This document shows, one piece after another, positions 6,943 through 45,011 of a stretch of DNA of 64,000 nt. Each line of letters starts with the position of its first letter. Position 1 is the first letter of the stretch. Below the pieces are notes generated by a model. The model saw only the letters and a program-made list of their open reading frames with translations, made no database searches and was not told where the DNA came from. The stretch is from a virus: the IMG/VR virus record IMGVR_UViG_3300046777_001575, positions 1 to 64,000 of that record; one strand, given 5' to 3'. The position numbers and the translations under genes were made by a program.

Positions 6943-7887
6943 TTAGTTTAGCATAAGAGATATAGATTTGTCAAACTGAAATTCTAACTTAGCAAGTTCT
7001 TCGTCTGACATATCGCCTATATCTTTATATTGTTTGTTTAATGTAATAACGGAAACACGACTAGAAAGTTTTGTGACTATCCTATCTTTCATGTTTCCTC
7101 CTGCCTCATCGTTATCTGCAACAACAATAATGTTATTGAAATACTTCTGAAGCAATTCTATTTGTGTGCTGGATACATTTGCACCAAGTGTTGCAACGGC
7201 TGGAAGACCGACCTGATCAAGTCTAATAGCGTCAAATGAAGACTCCACTACATAGACTCTATCTGATTTCTTTACACGATGTAAATTAAAAAGGGTCTTG
7301 CTTTTTGGAAGCCCTGGAGTATTTTTAAAGTCTTTACCCTCAATAGATCTTCCAACAAACCCCAAAGGTATTCCGTCTGGACTATGAACTGGAACAGTAA
7401 CCATATCCTGTTTATCCGAATATCCCAAAGAAAATTTAATGCATGATGGCTTTATAATTTTCCTATATGCAAAATAGTTTTTTGCCCTTTCAGAACTAAC
7501 TAAATTATTGTGTAGCCTTTTAATAATTAGTTCATCAAATGGCTTGTATGTTTCTTCTTTTATAAGAACACGATCAATTTCTACAGCAATATTACTTTCT
7601 TTTTTCTTACTATTAATAAATCTGGCAGCCTCAAAATATGTTCTTCCAGAAGTATGCATCACTAGTTCTGTAAGGTCTGCAGATTTTTGACAAGAAAAAC
7701 AAAAAAACATTCCGCTATCCTTTTGTACTTCACCCGCTGGTGTTCTATGATTATTATGAAATGGACAAAAGATCATAAAGTCTGCATCAAGTTCAGACTC
7801 TATTGTTATACCAGATCCTGTAAGGACTCGCTTGACTTGTTCTGCGGAATAAGTATTGGATTGGTTCCGTCTATTCCTGCTATCCAT
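6943..7887 (-). CDS. DNA primase (zinc finger + TOPRIM)
   Basis: CPFH...CFSC zinc finger; VVESSFDA and ADNDEAG TOPRIM motifs; KDIGD. Confidence 0.92.
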   Translation of the reverse strand: MDSRNRRNQSNTYSAEQVKRVLTGSGITIESELDADFMIFCPFHNNHRTPAGEVQKDSGMFFCFSCQKSADLTELVMHTSGRTYFEAARFINSKKKESNIAVEIDRVLIKEETYKPFDELIIKRLHNNLVSSERAKNYFAYRKIIKPSCIKFSLGYSDKQDMVTVPVHSPDGIPLGFVGRSIEGKDFKNTPGLPKSKTLFNLHRVKKSDRVYVVESSFDAIRLDQVGLPAVATLGANVSSTQIELLQKYFNNIIVVADNDEAGGNMKDRIVTKLSSRVSVITLNKQYKDIGDMSDEELAKLEFQFDKSISLMLN

Positions 7888-8150
7888 TCGCTCTTCCTTT
7901 TCCCTGCGTAAACTGCATGTATCGATAATTCAAATTCAAAAAAGTTCTTTATCTCATTATACCTTATAGTGAAATCTGGGTCAAGATCAATTCTTGGAAC
8001 ATACCCACTTAATCTCATTTCTGATATTAATAATCTTATATACTCCTCTTTAAGCCTTCCGATCATTGAGTCGTCATAAATTATTCCGTCAAGGCAAAAG
8101 CGCTTAATTGACTTATGATGATATGAGCCATTGGCACCTTTTTTTGACAT
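7806..8150 (-). CDS. Hypothetical protein
   Basis: 114-aa ORF between helicase and primase; TATAAT lies 5 nt upstream of the ATG. Confidence 0.55.
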   Translation of the reverse strand: MSKKGANGSYHHKSIKRFCLDGIIYDDSMIGRLKEEYIRLLISEMRLSGYVPRIDLDPDFTIRYNEIKNFFEFELSIHAVYAGKRKSEWIAGIDGTNPILIPQNKSSESLQDLV

Positions 8151-37286: not shown

Positions 37287-40200
37287 TTAAACTGGATCAA
37301 CAACTACTTGGCTCCAGTTTACGTCAGAATATCCAGTATATCTATAGTTTCCAAACCTTAAAACCCTGCTATCGTCTACTATAATCTTGTTTGTTCCTGT
37401 ATAACTCTTATAAACTTCTGCTGGGTTCACACCATAGTAACTTGTTTCTGATAAGACCAGAACCTTGTTCCAATTAAATGATCCGACATTCCAGAACTTC
37501 CAGTCCAAATCTGTCGCATTAAGCACCTTAACCCTAAACCAAGGCCTTTCAGAAACATTCTGAACCTCTTGCAAATTTGTTGACTGATAGAATGAAATAT
37601 TGTTAAATAGCAATGGGCCAGTTAGTCTTATTGCTCCTTCAAAATATGAAAAATCTAAAATATTTGCAAAACTAATGCCAATAAATCCCCAGTCTTGAAG
37701 TGTAATTACTGGTTCTTTTACTATCTTGCCGTTCCAGTAAAACCCTATGCCATCTTGTATTAATCCAGTCTTAGAATTAATTGCATAAATTTTTGCTCTT
37801 CGTCCGCTAGGATCGCAAGCAACAAGATAAAACTTTATATACGAATCACGACTTTCTATTTCAAAAATTTGTGTTGGTGCATATGGGAAATAGTCACCAT
37901 CAAACCTAACAGCAAGTTGCATTGCAATAACCTTAAAACCATCAGATCTACTACTATTAACTGGAATCATAAGACCTCTATTTATTAGTGGATCATATTT
38001 TCCTTTTAACTGAATACCACTTGTTTTTGTTAAATAAAGATATGGAGATGACGCATTATAAATTGAAAATGGATTATCCTTTTTAAAATTATAATATATG
38101 CCAGTTTTTGTATATGGGTATATTGGTGTTCCAAATCTAGTACCAATTGGGCTTGCATCTGATTCATTAAGTGCCTGAGAACAATAAGATAAATTTTTTA
38201 TATTTACATTATTTATTTCAGAATTTTTTACATTTATATCTATATGCGTTACTATTGACAAATCATTAAAATCAACTCCAGAGGGTGGATAGATGATCAT
38301 ATTGTCTACAACCTCATACTTTGTTGTCATCCAATCTGAACCTGGAATTAGTACACCGTCTCTTGATGGTCTTTCTATTTTTGTAAAATAAGAAGATGGC
38401 GCATTTGCCCCAAGTTCTGTATATTGAAAGGTTATGTATGTTTTTACAAGTGCCCCGTCAGTATCATATCTATAGTCTTTTGAAATTTTATTTTTTAAAT
38501 CTTCATAATCATTATATCCAGTAAACAAATAATTATCTAAAGATTCATAGGTTCTTTGTATTGGGGATCCATACTGATTAGCAAGATCTTCATATGTCCA
38601 AGCAACTGGACTAGTCTCTATTGCAATTGTTTTTGTTGGAATTGGATAATTAATATTAAATTGAATAAAATCAAGATCAAAATATTGATCGCCTCTTTGA
38701 TCAAGAACAGACTCTGCAAAATACGTTAATGGCAGATTATCTTCCCAATATGCGTTTGATGCAACAGCAAGTGTATACTTGTCAAACAAGATATCGGGAA
38801 TCAGGGTATAACTTGCAGTATGCTCAACTAAAAAGTCTTCCTCTAAAAGAATAACTCCTCCACCAGAAATTGCTCCTGGGGATGTATCTGTTGTCCCTCC
38901 GTAAGGTGGCAAAGATGTGGTATCAATTCCTGCATCAATATCTACTATTTCATTATTTTGATAGGCAAAGAATAAATCTTCGTTTAACTTTGGAACCCCA
39001 ACCTCATTAAATAAGTTTTTAATTTTTTGAAAATTATATTTAGTTGCAAATCCAACATTGTAAATTTTTCCATCAAATGTTGCAGTGTTTGTTTTATCTC
39101 CACCAACGTACATTCTTAAATCTGAATAGGACCCAAAAAAATCTGATACAGGATTTCCAAAAACTTCTACAAATCTAGGGATATTAATACCTGCCTCAAA
39201 GAACTCATTGTTGTTTAAAATTTCAGAAGAATATAAGATTTCTGATTGTCCATTTATGCTTATAATATATTTTAAAACATTATTTTCTACCTGTATCTTA
39301 AAATAATTAGAAGTATTTTCTTTTTCAATTTTAAAAAGTATTTGTGGGCCTATTACACTACCTTTTAATTGAAAACATCCATAAAATGCTGAAACTGGAG
39401 TTTTTAAAACATCAAAATTTTCAAAAAATAAATATCCAGATACGTTATTCCACAAAGTATTTGGCTTAAATGAAAAATATTCTCTATTATCATAAAAAAA
39501 GTTTGAAGCATCTTCTACTAAATTAGCAACCCTATTATCTTCAAACAATTCTAACTCTGTTTTAGAAGAAAGAAAAACTTTTGGAAGTGGATGAGATATT
39601 ACAGAAAGTGATCTATTTGATGTTGACATATTATCATTAAAACCCTGATTCCAGGAACCTATTTTAGGATAAGAATAATTTGCAGTATAATCTGCAAAAG
39701 AGTAGTCAATTGCAACTGACGTACCGCTATATGCTGTATTTATATTTTCTGGAACCTCAACACCCTGGCCAAACACATACCGTCTTTTTGCAACTTGGCT
39801 AGGAACCAAATATGGGTATATTCCAACACAGTCTACGTCTATTGGAGATACATCATCATAAGCATAAAAGCCAATCCAGTCTTGATCTTTGTTGTCGGTA
39901 TTTAGTTTTGATGGCAAGTTTGCAGAATCCTGTGAATATGGAATTGATATAACCTCTTCTCCATTAATTAAAAAGGATGCATTGTCTTTTCCAATCTTTA
40001 AATGAACAAGCATTGGCCTTGTCCACTCTCCAATATAGTTTGTTTTATACTCATTTCCAATTTTTAATCCTACAGAAGGGCCATCCACATAAACTCCATC
40101 TGTTGAACCAATAGGACCAATTATTCTTTTCCTAGTATTTGTGTAAGAGTTTATTCGAATCCATGTTTCAAGTGTATATTGTTTAAATTGTCCTAAAGAA

Positions 40201-41027
40201 TTTAACATTCCAGCACCAGGAATAATTAAAGAAGGTTTTCCATTATTTTCAAATAAAGTTGTGTGCCCAGAAGTTCCATAAATCAGTGGTATACCAGCAT
40301 TTTTTGCTTTTATCATGTTATCAGAAACAAGATAATAGGCATTTAATTCTTGAAGACCATAGCATTTAGCAATAATCCCTTTGTGTGGAGACAAAGCAAT
40401 TGTTGATGGAATATCTATAACGCTAGTTCCTAAAGAACTTGAAGCAAACTCTTCTGACCATTGGCCAAGAGTTATTCCGTTGACTCTAAATGCATGCTCT
40501 TCATTTTTATTTTCAACATATGTAATTTCAAATACTACCCTAATATTTGAGTCATCTGGTGGCGCATCAAAAGTTTCTGATATAAAAATCCATTTATTGT
40601 TTACAACTGTATCAAAATTTTTAAGATGGGTGACGGTTTGATCACTTGTCGTATCTACATATTCATACCCAATTGATAAACTTGTAATATAGGAACTTTC
40701 TGAATAAAAATAACCACCTACACAAAATGTTTTTAGGTATTTACTTAAATCTTGTATGTTAATTAACTCTTGGCTTTTTGCAGTAATTGTTGTTGTTCCA
40801 TCTAATGAACCAGTTGCAACAATTCTACCAACATAACTATCAATAAACGGTGTATCAGAAGTTTTGGTATATGCGCTTGCCAATCCACCATTTATTGACC
40901 AGTTAGAAAGATTTCTTTGTGACTCTGATATTAAAGAAATATAGTCTGCTCCATCATCAAGAGCCCATAGCCCAATAGGATGTTCTGCAAACACCTTTTC
41001 TGCATATAAGTTTGATAGAGTAGACAT
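37287..41027 (-). CDS. Large virion protein with LamG/ConA-like domains
   Basis: AEHPIGLWALD N-terminus; YTLETWIR...HLKI...FLINGEEV LamG-like pattern. Confidence 0.6.
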   Translation of the reverse strand: MSTLSNLYAEKVFAEHPIGLWALDDGADYISLISESQRNLSNWSINGGLASAYTKTSDTPFIDSYVGRIVATGSLDGTTTITAKSQELINIQDLSKYLKTFCVGGYFYSESSYITSLSIGYEYVDTTSDQTVTHLKNFDTVVNNKWIFISETFDAPPDDSNIRVVFEITYVENKNEEHAFRVNGITLGQWSEEFASSSLGTSVIDIPSTIALSPHKGIIAKCYGLQELNAYYLVSDNMIKAKNAGIPLIYGTSGHTTLFENNGKPSLIIPGAGMLNSLGQFKQYTLETWIRINSYTNTRKRIIGPIGSTDGVYVDGPSVGLKIGNEYKTNYIGEWTRPMLVHLKIGKDNASFLINGEEVISIPYSQDSANLPSKLNTDNKDQDWIGFYAYDDVSPIDVDCVGIYPYLVPSQVAKRRYVFGQGVEVPENINTAYSGTSVAIDYSFADYTANYSYPKIGSWNQGFNDNMSTSNRSLSVISHPLPKVFLSSKTELELFEDNRVANLVEDASNFFYDNREYFSFKPNTLWNNVSGYLFFENFDVLKTPVSAFYGCFQLKGSVIGPQILFKIEKENTSNYFKIQVENNVLKYIISINGQSEILYSSEILNNNEFFEAGINIPRFVEVFGNPVSDFFGSYSDLRMYVGGDKTNTATFDGKIYNVGFATKYNFQKIKNLFNEVGVPKLNEDLFFAYQNNEIVDIDAGIDTTSLPPYGGTTDTSPGAISGGGVILLEEDFLVEHTASYTLIPDILFDKYTLAVASNAYWEDNLPLTYFAESVLDQRGDQYFDLDFIQFNINYPIPTKTIAIETSPVAWTYEDLANQYGSPIQRTYESLDNYLFTGYNDYEDLKNKISKDYRYDTDGALVKTYITFQYTELGANAPSSYFTKIERPSRDGVLIPGSDWMTTKYEVVDNMIIYPPSGVDFNDLSIVTHIDINVKNSEINNVNIKNLSYCSQALNESDASPIGTRFGTPIYPYTKTGIYYNFKKDNPFSIYNASSPYLYLTKTSGIQLKGKYDPLINRGLMIPVNSSRSDGFKVIAMQLAVRFDGDYFPYAPTQIFEIESRDSYIKFYLVACDPSGRRAKIYAINSKTGLIQDGIGFYWNGKIVKEPVITLQDWGFIGISFANILDFSYFEGAIRLTGPLLFNNISFYQSTNLQEVQNVSERPWFRVKVLNATDLDWKFWNVGSFNWNKVLVLSETSYYGVNPAEVYKSYTGTNKIIVDDSRVLRFGNYRYTGYSDVNWSQVVVDPV

Positions 41028-41064: not shown

Positions 41065-41559
41065 TTAATTTTTAGGAACCCACAACTTCTCACTACCCTT
41101 ATTGTGATACCTAGCCATCACAAATAGTAAGTCTGAAAGTCTGTTCAGATATTTTGCAATATTTGTATTTATACCATCTATTTTCCAAACCTGACGCTCT
41201 GCTCTTCTAACAATAGTTCTGGCGTTGTGCAGTGGCCCAGTAGGTAATATAAAAGAGTGCAGCGGTTCTAAATATTTATTATAATCATCTATAATATTTT
41301 CTAAATAGATAACTCTTTCTTCAGAAATTTTTATTGTTAACGCTCCAGCAAGTTCTGCACCTAAGTCAAAAAGATCACTTTGAATTCTATCTGTAATATC
41401 ATTATGAAATTCGATTGCCATACCGATAGCAGAATTTGCCTCATCTATCACACCAATAGCCTCTATCAGGTCGCTACTTTTGTCTACTATTTTGTTGTTG
41501 GCGGTTGATGTTTTTCCACCGTCCCCTGTTTTTGTATAAATACGAGTTAGATGAACCAT
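41065..41559 (-). CDS. pduO: ATP:cob(I)alamin adenosyltransferase (PduO type)
   Basis: IYTKTGDGGKT, GVIDEANSAIG, IQSDLFDLGAEL, FILP, ARTIVRRAER, YLNRLSDLLFVMAR. True start is MVHLTR at 41559. Confidence 0.93.
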   Translation of the reverse strand: MVHLTRIYTKTGDGGKTSTANNKIVDKSSDLIEAIGVIDEANSAIGMAIEFHNDITDRIQSDLFDLGAELAGALTIKISEERVIYLENIIDDYNKYLEPLHSFILPTGPLHNARTIVRRAERQVWKIDGINTNIAKYLNRLSDLLFVMARYHNKGSEKLWVPKN

Positions 41560-41723
41560 TAGTGTCCCGTCAAAGATCTCCAAATATCAATAGTCATCTG
41601 GTTTGCTATATATAGTGCACAAATATTTATAACTAGTTGAAAAATATATTCAATAGTTTTTGGTTTCTTTTTTTGCAAAGGAAACTGTATTACATTATTT
41701 AAATTTTTATATGCTAGTTTCAT
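41559..41723 (-). CDS. Small membrane protein, 54 aa (not in ORF track)
   Basis: MKLAYKNLNNVIQFPLQKKKPKTIEYIFQLVINICALYIANQMTIDIWRSLTGH; ATGA overlap upstream and TAATG overlap downstream. Confidence 0.65.
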   Translation of the reverse strand: MKLAYKNLNNVIQFPLQKKKPKTIEYIFQLVINICALYIANQMTIDIWRSLTGH

Positions 41724-42175
41724 GGAAACCTAACCTTGCCATTGTCAGCAAACACTAAGCCAATGGAGTCTCCTGGATTCAAATATTGTTCATTAATTGC
41801 AAGTTGACCCCAGCCCCACTCTTTAGTAGGGAAAGGCAAAAATTGTTTTTCTTTAATAATAATTGCCCAATATGCTTTTTCTGATGGCATTCCGTCGCAT
41901 GGCTCAATTGTTGCATTTGGCAAATTGTTTACTCGACAAACAACAGCGTCACCCCATCTTTTTGTACCTTCTATTGTTAAGCCAGCCTGTTTTAATAAGT
42001 CTAAGGCAATAATTTCTGTAGAAGATTCTACGCATTGATTTGACTTTGTATTATTATTTAATGAGCCGTAATCAATATATAAATTAATACACTTACTGTC
42101 TTCATTTGTTACAAGAGGCAGACCAAAGAATGCCAGTGTAATAATGACTATAGACATTAATGTTTTTTGAATCAT
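41720..42175 (-). CDS. Membrane-anchored DUF4430/transcobalamin-C-terminal-like protein (putative B12-binding)
   Basis: N-terminal TM/signal, then ALDLLKQAG...VVCRVN...YW...W.....INEQYLNPGDSIGL (beta-grasp-like pattern); sits between nrdJ and pduO. Confidence 0.55.
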   Translation of the reverse strand: MIQKTLMSIVIITLAFFGLPLVTNEDSKCINLYIDYGSLNNNTKSNQCVESSTEIIALDLLKQAGLTIEGTKRWGDAVVCRVNNLPNATIEPCDGMPSEKAYWAIIIKEKQFLPFPTKEWGWGQLAINEQYLNPGDSIGLVFADNGKVRFP

Positions 42176-42177
42176 TA

Positions 42178-44208
42178 CTATCCAATCTTTATTTCGCAAT
42201 AATCAGTAGTGCAGTAAGCCTCACCTTGTGCTTCTAGATTATCTACTCCGTCGTAAATAGCACTAAAGTCAATATGCTTCAGTTTACCAATATAGGACTC
42301 ATACTCTTCTTCAGTAATTTGAGTGTATGGCTGTTGTGGATAAACAGTATTTCCCATTGGCAGAAATGAGACTGCCTTTAATTGTCCCTCGTACATATGC
42401 AGTGCTGGGACAACATGCTTTGACTCTGTTTCCTTATCAAATGAAAGTGTTACAGAAACACCATTATCAGACCAGTACTTCTGAGCAGTTGCAGCAAGTG
42501 CGATCTTTTCAAATAGGGTTACATCCTTTTCAGATCTTGGGTGACCTGACTTGATTGGGAAGTATACGACTGATGTGTTTGCTGATACTACGTCATCTTC
42601 GATTGTGTACCCTGCTGCTTTGAACAAGTGCATCATTGGATCTGTGTTTCCAAATCGAACTGCACGAAGGAAGAAGTTTCCTCCAGGTCCCCAGTGAACT
42701 CCAGGAGTTGCGCCAGAAAGAATTGAAACTGATCCTGATGGCTTAACTGTTGTTACACGAATTGATTCACGAACACAAAGCCATTCTGAATATGAGTGAT
42801 CATATTTACGAATTGTTGTGTATCCTTCGTCCATCCATTCACGAACCGTTGGCAAACCTTTTTGATCAGCAAATGATGCAATGCCAGTAAGTGATGTACC
42901 AATACGACGATTGCGCTGCATGATGCCATTAGTCTGTTGCCAGTGTGTTGGAACGAGTGTTACAGTCTTTCCATAAAGATATGCAAACTTCAGGGTACGC
43001 AGGAAGTCCTCCTTGGATTCATGACGATTCAGGTGCACTTCTACAAGTGTACACAATTCGTATGATTCCAATGGCTGCTCCGCACATGGGTTAAATCCCA
43101 TCACACGATAATCTTTACCGTCTGGCGCATCCTTTAGTCGTCCATAATTACGAGCAACATCAAGCCAGATAAAACCTGGTTCTCCATTTTCTGTAATCAA
43201 ATCTACATAGTCTTCATACTTAGTCCCCACCTCTGCTGAGATAGAGTTATTAGACATCCAAGCCCAACCTGGATTTTCTGGGTCAAAAGAATTGCGCTCT
43301 GGAAACACTTCTGCATTCTTAAGATTCATGAATGCTTGGTCACCTTCATTTCCTAAAGCAAGGGTTGCAGAACGACGAACATTGCCAGATACTACACAGG
43401 TACCAATTAGGTTTACTAGGTCTACAATGGCACGAGAATCTAGTGTTTCACCTGCTCTGGAGCCGATTACACGGTCTATCTGATCATGCAACTTAATAAG
43501 AGGTGCAGGTCCCGATGCAACGCCACCAAAACCTTTAATTGGTGCTCCAAGAGGTCTAATTAAGTCATAATTAAACTTTTGAATACTTTGATTTGGTCTT
43601 AGGTAAGAGTTAATTAAAAGTCGTACCGACTCCACCCAACCCTCACGAGTGTCTGGAATTTCAAAGATCTCTTCTGGCTCCGTCGGTGTATAGATTGCAA
43701 AATTCTTATCCTGTCCAACAGTGTCAAAGCCTACACCAATGCCAAGCATTAATGCATCCATCACCCAAGCAAATAAGGCTCCTGGATCATTTTTATCAAG
43801 ATCTTTTGTTGAAACCATTGCACAATTTTGTAGTGCTGCTGAGTTCTTCTTTTCCATAGTCATAGGAGTTCCAAATGCCCACATGCCACGACCTGGTGGT
43901 GTCCACTTTAACTCAAACATTCTCTGGAATGCTTCCTGTGCTGACTTCTGAGCCTTATAGTCATTCCATGGCAAACGATTTTCCTTAGCATGATTCTTCT
44001 GTACGGAATACATACCCTCGATTACACGACGACAAACTTCGTGCCATCTTTCCTTAGTTCCATCTTCCTTCATTCGAGAATATGTACGAATAAAAGTAAT
44101 CTCTCCAAGTGAATTTTCTGCTGCATCTTTGAATCCAAATGGGCTTTCTGCATTCTTGTACTTTTCTACAAAATCCTCTGGAAGTTTAAAACTAAAAAAA
44201 TCTGACAT
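42178..44208 (-). CDS. nrdJ: Class II (AdoCbl-dependent) ribonucleotide reductase, RTPR-like
   Basis: TFIRTYSR, PPGRGMW, LQNCA, VVSGNVRRSA, GFNPCAEQPLESYELCTL, TTVKPSGSVS, C-terminal CTTDYC. Confidence 0.93.
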   Translation of the reverse strand: MSDFFSFKLPEDFVEKYKNAESPFGFKDAAENSLGEITFIRTYSRMKEDGTKERWHEVCRRVIEGMYSVQKNHAKENRLPWNDYKAQKSAQEAFQRMFELKWTPPGRGMWAFGTPMTMEKKNSAALQNCAMVSTKDLDKNDPGALFAWVMDALMLGIGVGFDTVGQDKNFAIYTPTEPEEIFEIPDTREGWVESVRLLINSYLRPNQSIQKFNYDLIRPLGAPIKGFGGVASGPAPLIKLHDQIDRVIGSRAGETLDSRAIVDLVNLIGTCVVSGNVRRSATLALGNEGDQAFMNLKNAEVFPERNSFDPENPGWAWMSNNSISAEVGTKYEDYVDLITENGEPGFIWLDVARNYGRLKDAPDGKDYRVMGFNPCAEQPLESYELCTLVEVHLNRHESKEDFLRTLKFAYLYGKTVTLVPTHWQQTNGIMQRNRRIGTSLTGIASFADQKGLPTVREWMDEGYTTIRKYDHSYSEWLCVRESIRVTTVKPSGSVSILSGATPGVHWGPGGNFFLRAVRFGNTDPMMHLFKAAGYTIEDDVVSANTSVVYFPIKSGHPRSEKDVTLFEKIALAATAQKYWSDNGVSVTLSFDKETESKHVVPALHMYEGQLKAVSFLPMGNTVYPQQPYTQITEEEYESYIGKLKHIDFSAIYDGVDNLEAQGEAYCTTDYCEIKIG

Positions 44209-44297
44209 GTGTTTCGTCCTTTCTAAAACGGAATAGAGTTAATTATAGCAGAGTTTTATTAAAAGTAAAACTCTACCTAAATGTATTGTTGAGAGTT

Positions 44298-45011
44298 TTA
44301 TTTAAAAGTTTTCTTTTGCCAAAACTTAAGTCTATAACCATTTTGAAAAGTAGATCTAACCTTATTACTTTGTTCTTCTACTTTTTTTGTTGAGAAGTTT
44401 TTGTCTAATTCCATGACCCAATCTTCTCTTTTAAATGGAAAAATTTGAGACATTGGCGTTCCCTGCTTTATGGTTCCTTTAAAATTCTTTTTTATTAAAA
44501 AAGAAAGATGTCCATCAGTAAAATAGTTATCAGTATCAACTACAGCATCTATAGCCTTTAGTGGTGATGGTGGTTGGTGCATTGGGCTTGTAAAAAATGT
44601 GCTATATCCAGCACTAGTTTGTACCATCCAAGTAGGATGAATTCTTAAAATTTTATTGCAATAGATATCGCTATCTATCGGCAAATGAGATACCTGTTCT
44701 TGTGAATGTTCACTTATTAATAAGGAGTAATACTTGTTCATGGCAGCAGGAAGTTGAATGTTAACATTTCCATCAGTTGTGTCTATATATATATCACATG
44801 GTACCTTTAGAAGATATCCCATTGCCATTGCATCAAAAAACGCTTGACATTTTTTTACTGTTAACCTCATGACACCCTTGTCAGGAACATCGCTACCTGA
44901 AATTGCAGGTTGCTCTTTATACCAAGTCGGAATATTTTTAGTTGCCTGCTCTGGTTCTGGAACAATATTAACTAATTGAGGATACATTTGAAGAAATCTA
45001 ACAGTGTTCAT
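44298..45011 (-). CDS. Phage protein of unknown function (beta-barrel, possibly a tailoring enzyme)
   Basis: IPTWYK, TVKKCQAFFDAMAMGY, WMVQTSAGYSTFF..P, VVDTD, IKQGTPMSQIFPFKRE; has its own TGATATAAT promoter. Confidence 0.5.
   Translation of the reverse strand: MNTVRFLQMYPQLVNIVPEPEQATKNIPTWYKEQPAISGSDVPDKGVMRLTVKKCQAFFDAMAMGYLLKVPCDIYIDTTDGNVNIQLPAAMNKYYSLLISEHSQEQVSHLPIDSDIYCNKILRIHPTWMVQTSAGYSTFFTSPMHQPPSPLKAIDAVVDTDNYFTDGHLSFLIKKNFKGTIKQGTPMSQIFPFKREDWVMELDKNFSTKKVEEQSNKVRSTFQNGYRLKFWQKKTFK

Follow-up and report, generated by a model that had tools for sequence, protein, structure and literature searches.

In Lactobacillus delbrueckii, nrdJ, cbrS, cbrT and pduO form one cluster, in which CbrT is a proven S-component for vitamin B12 and cobinamide that imports B12 (Santos et al. 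2018, PMC5997447). In Lactobacillus rhamnosus, a DUF4430 gene adjoins rtpR (PMC9963975). Among viruses, those with the cobalamin-related auxiliary genes cobS and cobT and virioplankton carrying a ribonucleoside-triphosphate reductase (RTPR) invest in the B12-dependent synthesis of deoxynucleoside triphosphates (dNTPs) (PMC10547690; bioRxiv 10.1101/655167), and the papers on RTPR viruses speculate on enhanced B12 uptake during infection but report no genes for it (PMC10547690). Here, we analyzed a 64-kb window (positions 1 to 64,000 of the 78.5-kb IMG/VR virus record IMGVR_UViG_3300046777_001575) in which nrdJ, a 151-aa open reading frame (ORF) called TCL151, a 54-aa ORF called tm54, and pduO follow one another on the minus strand. 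It is fairly probable that these four genes act as an operon from which the ribonucleotide reductase (RNR) of the phage receives its coenzyme B12, through capture, hand-off to a host importer, activation, and use.

Judged by analogy, the Lactobacillus nrdJ-cbrS-cbrT-pduO cluster is the closest known arrangement. Both loci have the same four-slot order of a B12-dependent RNR, two small uptake-related genes, and PduO, which suggests a common logic of use, uptake, and activation, and the phage reductase is of the RTPR type, as in Lactobacillus. The two middle slots differ. TCL151 in slot 2 lies outside the DUF4430 hidden Markov model (HMM) and corresponds to CbrS by gene order. In slot 3, Lactobacillus has CbrT, a six-helix S-component of the energy-coupling factor (ECF) type, whereas the phage has a single-pass peptide; such S-components measure ~180-200 aa with six transmembrane helices, while tm54 is 43-54 aa long across the viral loci and has one helix. 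Furthermore, the cassette belongs to a virus and has its nearest cellular relatives among actinobacteria, in contrast to the Lactobacillales cluster. Viral investment in B12-dependent dNTP synthesis is shared with the cobS/cobT viruses; CobS and CobT, however, act inside the cell on corrinoid remodeling, whereas the phage cassette would add an extracytoplasmic capture protein. In the literature searched, neither this cassette nor any viral extracytoplasmic capture protein together with an adenosyltransferase has been reported. We infer that the cassette represents a viral form, newly seen here, of a known type of B12 salvage cluster, with binding and uptake as its predicted functions.

A four-gene cassette conserved among viral relatives

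The four ORFs are closely coupled, with a 2-nt gap between nrdJ and TCL151 (TAG-ta-ATG), a 4-nt overlap between TCL151 and tm54 (ATGA), and a 1-nt overlap between tm54 and pduO (TAATG). All three junctions and the order of the ORFs in the window agree with a preliminary description of this DNA, which had reported the close coupling of these genes (coordinates are given in Table 1).

Both enzymes were recognized by family models. NrdJ matched the Pfam domains RNR_Alpha (PF17975; 9.6e-32) and RNR-II_ins_dom (PF21995; 2.1e-14) as well as PHROG 367 (1.1e-142), and it passed the NCBIfam RTPR model TIGR02505 marginally, with 340.8 bits against a cut-off of 340.05. These matches classify it as a monomeric class II ribonucleoside-triphosphate reductase of the RTPR type, dependent on adenosylcobalamin (AdoCbl). 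Its translation holds an NPCAE radical loop followed by a second cysteine at a distance of 11 residues, and its C-terminus bears a C-x4-C pair; we take this N-P-C-x-E thiyl-radical loop, the cysteine at +11, and the C-terminal cysteine pair to be the catalytic residues known from L. leichmannii RTPR. PduO matched PF01923 over model positions 1-170 of 171 (1.9e-45; 155.4 bits, cut-off 24) and TIGR00636 with 149.9 bits (cut-off 108.45), so that by family models it is a clear-cut PduO-type ATP:cob(I)alamin adenosyltransferase. Residues 7-17 of PduO read YTKTGDGGKTS, presumably the N-terminal ATP-binding motif (T/S)-K-x-G-D-x-G-x-T, and align with the PduO of acI actinobacteria (Nanopelagicales); identity to the PduO of Candidatus (Ca.) Planktophila is 47%. 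An alternative TTG start would extend PduO to 172 aa, but the 164-aa form beginning at ATG is favored because it opens with the family-typical MVHLTRIYTKTGD.

At least 135 viral relatives of TCL151 were found in IMG/VR, and 80 of their loci were fetched to survey synteny. Both tm54 and pduO accompany TCL151 in 79/80 loci, and nrdJ is present in the same order in 75/80; the missing genes are accounted for by contig ends, except in one lineage (L077 and L079). The order was kept even where nrdJ was only 27-64% and pduO only 46% identical. This four-gene arrangement is far beyond chance, and the synteny survey that the preliminary description had proposed as a check upheld the cassette.

Conservation of the whole unit also bears on the possibility that the two middle genes serve phage-phage or phage-host conflict, for example by masking or remodeling a host B12-uptake component that serves phages as a receptor (superinfection exclusion) or by withholding B12 from neighboring cells. 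Some phages block nutrient receptors with membrane lipoproteins of their own, such as Llp of T5 against FhuA, and TCL151 is surface-exposed, as far as its sequence tells, in a cassette that sits among tail-fiber-like genes. Nevertheless, we regard a role in conflict as very unlikely. The coupling of the pair to nrdJ and pduO is kept across lineages that differ strongly elsewhere, the L077/L079 lineage keeps TCL, tm, and pduO together even without nrdJ upstream, and the architecture of the pair closely resembles that of a host operon whose B12-regulated role is straightforward (described below).

Two small groups of viral loci stand out. In L077 and L079, a thioredoxin-like protein and others lie upstream of the TCL-tm-pduO genes in place of nrdJ, which suggests that the three-gene unit can move or persist alone. 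In L006 and L007, the cassette contains a reductase only 27% identical to the NrdJ of the window, and the N-terminus of PduO closely resembles that of the acI host PduO; this lineage hints at repeated gene exchange between phages and hosts.

A tblastn search of TCL151 against 50,697 GenBank phage records returned no match, and PduO relatives in GenBank phages were few and mostly in short unannotated records. Near-identical DNA of the stretch was found in freshwater, riverine, and aquatic metagenomes from 9 studies (2017-2025), suggesting that the phage lineage is widespread in fresh water.

Predicted fold of TCL151 and features of tm54

TCL151 begins with a short basic start and a hydrophobic segment (residues ~5-22), followed by a domain with four invariant cysteines (C29, C48, C80, and C93). 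These features fit an extracytoplasmic protein, either secreted or held at the surface by an N-terminal anchor or signal sequence; high-GC relatives of TCL151 carry lipoboxes. No Pfam, PHROG, or NCBIfam match was found for TCL151. A word-indexed search yielded 170 close relatives, all ~150 aa long and all without Pfam domains, while an exhaustive profile search with the TCL151 family matched 335 proteins. Two kinds make up its distant relatives: lipoproteins of actinobacteria, 160-230 aa in length, and long proteins with added alpha/alpha toroids, the fold of transcobalamin's alpha domain. Among these long relatives, there was one sub-threshold match to Cobalamin_bind and one to DUF4430.

To describe the fold of TCL151, two models were built. 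The first AlphaFold model, from 26 sequences, had a pLDDT (predicted local distance difference test) of 73 and matched transcobalamin-type beta domains at Z ~10. The second (AF2), from a 67-sequence alignment, reached a pLDDT of 90.1, and ~97 over residues 30-150. When the second model was compared, independently of Foldseek, with 48,161 PDB representatives, only five chains had Z scores of 8 or more: bovine transcobalamin (2bb6; Z, 11.6; root-mean-square deviation [rmsd], 2.4 over 93 residues), the beta domain of human transcobalamin (5no0; Z, 10.9), the DUF4430 protein 3u7z (Z, 10.9; rmsd, 2.7 over 94/96 residues), haptocorrin (4kkj; Z, 10.8), and intrinsic factor (2pmv; Z, 10.7). The next fold, a generic beta-grasp, scored 6.6. 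Foldseek placed the same proteins at ranks 1-19 with probabilities of 0.98-1.00, and 3u7z with a TM-score of 0.67-0.69 normalized to the target; the same set of folds came out on top with the first, weaker model and by Foldseek. In the predicted model, a helix (residues 57-63) is followed by a beta-hairpin with strands at residues 68-71 and 75-82. Such a hairpin behind the helix is what sets the transcobalamin-like clade apart from other SLBB domains (Burroughs et al. 2007, PMC1796856). This post-helix insert, together with the fold matches, places the modeled TCL151 in the transcobalamin-like SLBB clade at the level of fold, outside the Pfam DUF4430 model.

The preliminary description had labeled TCL151 DUF4430/transcobalamin-like. 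At the sequence level that label did not hold, as no HMM match was found, whereas at the level of fold and superfamily it did (Z, 10.7-11.6). An unrelated fold, which the same description had named as one of two findings that would overturn its reading, was not seen; the model matches transcobalamin-type beta domains. With the beta domains of transcobalamin, intrinsic factor, and haptocorrin (2bb6, 5no0/5np4, 2pmv, 4kkj) and with 3u7z, the modeled TCL151 shares a beta-grasp core and hairpin over 93-96 residues. Like members of the transcobalamin-like clade (PMC1796856), it appears to be secreted or surface-anchored, and its cellular relatives are fused to toroid domains or accompanied by CbiO/CbiQ genes. 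On the other hand, identity to the transcobalamin-type beta domains is 11-19% without an HMM-level match, and TCL151 has no alpha domain. Further differences from transcobalamin-type proteins are two extra cysteine pairs, an N-terminal helix anchor, and a micro-peptide partner without a described counterpart. On this model, TCL151 is a predicted corrinoid-capture protein. The nearest named clusters in the ESM Atlas, which we treat as leads only, were DUF4430 (17% of members; score, 0.88) and PF28005 "SCO2322" (27%; score, 0.87); no mention of SCO2322 was found in the literature searched.

The tm54 peptide consists of a basic N-terminus, one hydrophobic helix, and a C-terminal tail, DIWRSLTGH, and had no Pfam, NCBIfam, or PHROG match. 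The basic charge ahead of the helix suggests that its N-terminus lies inside the cell, with the conserved tail and the TCL151 domain both on the outer side of the membrane. In 51 distinct viral tm54 sequences these last nine residues are fixed while their codons differ at third positions. Since the variation is confined to synonymous third positions, the constraint appears to act on the peptide, as protein-level selection. An RNA or ribosome-binding signal for pduO was also considered for this conserved end and was dropped, as only synonymous third positions vary. W48 and R49 are invariant across the phage and host peptides. We presume that tm54 is the partner of TCL151; prediction of their complex from our own alignments gave a score of 0.00 in both runs, which speaks neither for nor against binding.

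Cellular homologues and their genomic context

Species-representative genomes were scanned with a four-sequence alignment of intermediate relatives, and 54 cellular TCL loci were found; a scan with the phage-only TCL151 alignment found no cellular relative. The phage and cellular TCL profiles aligned in hhalign with a probability of 100 (E, 2e-39). Among these loci, 14 are of the Nanopelagicales (acI) type (L082-L091, L093-L095, and L097), including Ca. Nanopelagicus, Ca. Planktophila, and SCGC AAA027-J17. In all 14, the TCL homologue is followed after 9 nt by a membrane peptide of 51-57 aa that ends in ...AWRxWG-AC or -GH and is collinear with tm54. Furthermore, a cobalamin-class riboswitch lies directly upstream of the TCL homologue on the same strand in 14/14 loci and ends ~50-110 nt before it. 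It belongs to the AdoCbl family RF01482 in 13 of them (52.6-63.7 bits; gathering score, 50) and to the Cobalamin family RF00174 in L093 (43 bits). Searches with either Rfam model detected no other cobalamin riboswitch in three acI genomes. At the one locus inspected further, that of Ca. Planktophila sp. BS7 (L089; riboswitch leader at 7755-7899), the next gene lies on the opposite strand, which indicates an operon of two genes only.

The three acI genomes with this single riboswitch encode their own PduO, and two of them gave a single RNR match each, of ~935 aa, one of which was classified as a B12-dependent NrdJ (NF005122; 1571 bits). This sharpens the suggestion in the preliminary description that the host may be B12-limited: in the likely hosts, the only detected RNR is B12-dependent (two genomes, one classified). 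An RTPR-type reductase was not found in five host genomes with the phage NrdJ as the query. As the only unit found under a B12 riboswitch, in cells whose only detected RNR needs B12, the acI two-gene unit is a strong candidate for B12 acquisition by these dominant, hard-to-grow lake bacteria. No description of this operon was found in the literature searched.

The host operon and the phage pair have the same two genes in the same order with tight spacing, collinear peptides with an invariant W-R, and a common clade. They differ in that the host copy stands alone behind an AdoCbl riboswitch, whereas the phage copy has no riboswitch and lies between nrdJ and pduO; the phage TCL151 also lacks an insert of ~10 residues that precedes the fourth cysteine in the acI homologue. 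In a quick tree, read without a root or a direction of transfer, all viral TCL proteins formed one group. This group shared a well-supported clade (97 SH-aLRT) with the Nanopelagicaceae and stood apart from the Microbacteriaceae. As judged from these comparisons, the two middle genes are viral, riboswitch-less copies of a host operon rather than a phage invention.

Genes of host type could be mere passengers picked up from host DNA, without function for the phage, and the acI-like PduO N-terminus in L006/L007, with the repeated exchange it suggests, would suit that explanation. We consider it extremely improbable, as the genes are kept intact in 135 viral relatives at identities down to 51%, the cysteines are invariant, the tail of tm54 is under clear purifying selection, and the viral TCL proteins form one old clade. 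This is the opposite of a dN/dS of ~1 or of frequent disruption being seen in related phages.

In Microbacteriaceae (Aquiluna, Pontimonas, and others), the TCL homologue is the first gene of an ECF-type operon. The second gene in the two loci examined (L105 and L121) encodes a short EcfT-like membrane domain with an ARRLRG motif fused to two ECF/CbiO-type ATPase domains, and the third a six-helix membrane protein (P0271) without a Pfam family. Convergent downstream, metH adjoins both loci; no riboswitch was found there at the gathering score. By its gene content, the Aquiluna/Pontimonas operon resembles an ECF-type importer dedicated to B12 and equipped with an external binder. At a Nocardioidaceae locus, a CbiQ gene follows the TCL homologue. 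Bacterial transcobalamin-like SLBB proteins in CbiO/CbiQ operons have been predicted to scavenge B12 (PMC1796856). CbiO/CbiQ (ECF) neighbors are present for the Microbacteriaceae and Nocardioidaceae homologues, whereas in the phage and acI loci the TCL gene is followed by the micro-peptide, with no such neighbor.

Two lake-metagenome bins titled Bifidobacterium (L091 and L092) also contain TCL-family genes. The label of L091 looks wrong, because the locus holds a riboswitch operon of the acI type and falls within Nanopelagicaceae in the tree. L092 has neither riboswitch nor peptide, lies on a long branch, and is close to three tRNA genes; the contig may be viral or wrongly binned.

Proposed route of B12 supply and genomic setting

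Proteins encoded in the window include a portal, a prohead protease, a major head protein, a 2982-aa tape measure, a minor tail protein, a DNA polymerase, and a DnaB helicase, which mark the phage as a large siphovirus; it is uncultured and comes from fresh water. By gene similarity, it most likely infects Nanopelagicales (acI) actinobacteria. In the proposed route, the surface-anchored ectodomain of TCL151 would bind cobalamin or another corrinoid outside the membrane and, with tm54 as its partner, hand it to a host importer. Once inside the cell, the cob(I)alamin would be adenosylated by PduO, and the RTPR-type NrdJ would draw on this AdoCbl in making the dNTPs that phage DNA requires. We infer the corrinoid binding, the partnership of TCL151 with tm54, the hand-off to a transporter, and the benefit to the phage. 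Four independent lines of evidence, namely the fold of TCL151, the acI riboswitches (14/14), the ECF-type operons, and the viral synteny with nrdJ and pduO, support the capture-plus-activation module put forward in the preliminary description.

No riboswitch was found with Rfam anywhere in the 64-kb phage window, and the leader ahead of nrdJ is too short to hold one. A candidate sigma-70-type promoter lies ~35 nt upstream of the nrdJ ATG and is the top-scoring site of the region (10/12, with TG), and AAAGGA directly before the ATG is a likely ribosome-binding site. Since the phage copy lacks a riboswitch and seemingly has its own promoter, it may be expressed regardless of B12 status; the module would then be made during infection whatever the AdoCbl level of the cell.

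Several points weigh against this route. TCL151 and 25 close relatives gave no Pfam match up to E 10, and the check for DUF4430 that the preliminary description had suggested for TCL151 consequently failed. Even among 67 wider relatives, DUF4430 (PF14478) was matched by only 3, the best at E 0.0033 and 18.3 bits, all below the gathering score of 23.8 bits, and profile searches of PDB sequences with the 26- and 67-sequence alignments gave chance-level matches only. The affinity of TCL151 may be low, because the ligand of transcobalamin sits between its alpha and beta domains and TCL151 is beta-like only. The host assignment rests on gene similarity only. As for expression, the number of promoter-like sites in the region is not above shuffle expectation, which leaves the promoter a candidate only. 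In five further studies, part of the stretch was found in RNA libraries. RNA-library contigs of three studies lie on TCL151, three contigs being without mismatch to the window, and one contig, ~93% identical, spans tm54, TCL151, and the 3' end of nrdJ; such contigs cannot prove transcription and are weakly compatible with expression. In the two best RNA runs, parts of pduO and tm54 were without contig cover, a gap that proves nothing.

A common fold does not prove a common ligand, and TCL151 and tm54 might capture heme, cobinamide-type precursors only, or cobalt in place of complete B12. The title of PDB entry 3u7z is that of a putative metal-binding protein, CbiO/CbiQ-type modules also serve cobalt uptake, and a transcobalamin-like alpha/beta pair of L. 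sakei, in an ECF-like operon, has been proposed to take up heme (bioRxiv 10.1101/864751). We consider a ligand other than B12 unlikely given that the host operon stands behind an AdoCbl-class riboswitch in every acI locus, that in ~80 loci the phage pair is flanked by a B12 user on one side and a B12 activator on the other, and that metH adjoins the Microbacteriaceae operon. A corrinoid precursor such as cobinamide would, moreover, still amount to B12 supply.

The transport step raises a separate question. The Microbacteriaceae-like six-helix S-component, used as the one query, was not found in the phage or in three acI draft genomes, and CbiQ matches in the acI drafts were sporadic; with draft genomes, this does not show absence. 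The pair totals only two transmembrane helices, and a B12 channel built from two single-pass proteins alone is unlikely. With no transporter partner found in these searches, TCL151 and tm54 could instead retain or sense B12 at the membrane, as a store, chaperone, or signal, and the phage would gain only from NrdJ and PduO. This appears quite unlikely to us: the Microbacteriaceae and Nocardioidaceae homologues head ECF-type importer operons, and genes repressed by an AdoCbl riboswitch usually serve uptake or synthesis. A bolder alternative, which we find doubtful, is that the TCL protein and the ~50-aa peptide form a hitherto unrecognized, self-sufficient or adaptor-type system of B12 acquisition that is the sole B12-riboswitch regulon of acI, the most abundant freshwater bacteria, and was captured by phages without its riboswitch, thereby forcing infected cells to go on importing B12 for viral dNTPs. 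If true, viruses would have a direct hand in how B12 moves through lakes.

Vitamin B12 is in short supply in natural waters, where few microbes produce it and many others are limited by it, and viruses with B12-dependent reductases are widespread. If the proposed supply by hand-off to a host importer is correct, the cassette would be genetic evidence for a viral boost of B12 uptake, with user, activator, and surface capture module in one virus, and it exposes an uncharacterized two-gene host system in Nanopelagicales. Both claims, viral supply and acquisition by acI, are within reach of a small soluble domain and standard uptake reporters.

Table 1. Positions of the cassette genes, neighboring features, and related loci mentioned in the text.
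Feature	Sequence	Coordinates	Strand	Details
nrdJ	window	42178-44208	minus	676 aa
TCL151 (151-aa ORF)	window	41720-42175	minus	ATG at 42175, end at 41720
tm54 (54-aa ORF)	window	41559-41723	minus	
pduO	window	41065-41559	minus	164 aa, ATG at 41559, end at 41065
Candidate sigma-70-type promoter	window	44242..44269	minus	TTTACT, 16-nt spacer, extended -10 TG-n-TATAAT
Gene for 1246-aa protein	window	37287-41027	minus	
Gene for 237-aa protein	window	44298-45011	minus	
TCL-tm-pduO without nrdJ upstream	L077	4995-6105		
Cassette with 27% identical reductase	L006	2980-6111		
Riboswitch-TCL-peptide operon	L089	7755-8650		Ca. Planktophila sp. BS7
Microbacteriaceae operons	L105; L121	7950-11094; 7698-10905		Aquiluna and Pontimonas

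Two neighboring genes of the window flank the cassette. Between pduO, which it follows directly, and the portal gene downstream lies a gene for a 1246-aa protein, which had no PHROG match and is kept at 39-51% identity in 58/80 of the related viral loci; it is probably structural. Just upstream of nrdJ lies a 237-aa gene that matched PHROG 7084 (3e-40) and, weakly, DUF6065. Because it is found upstream of nrdJ in only 2/80 related loci, we place it outside the cassette.

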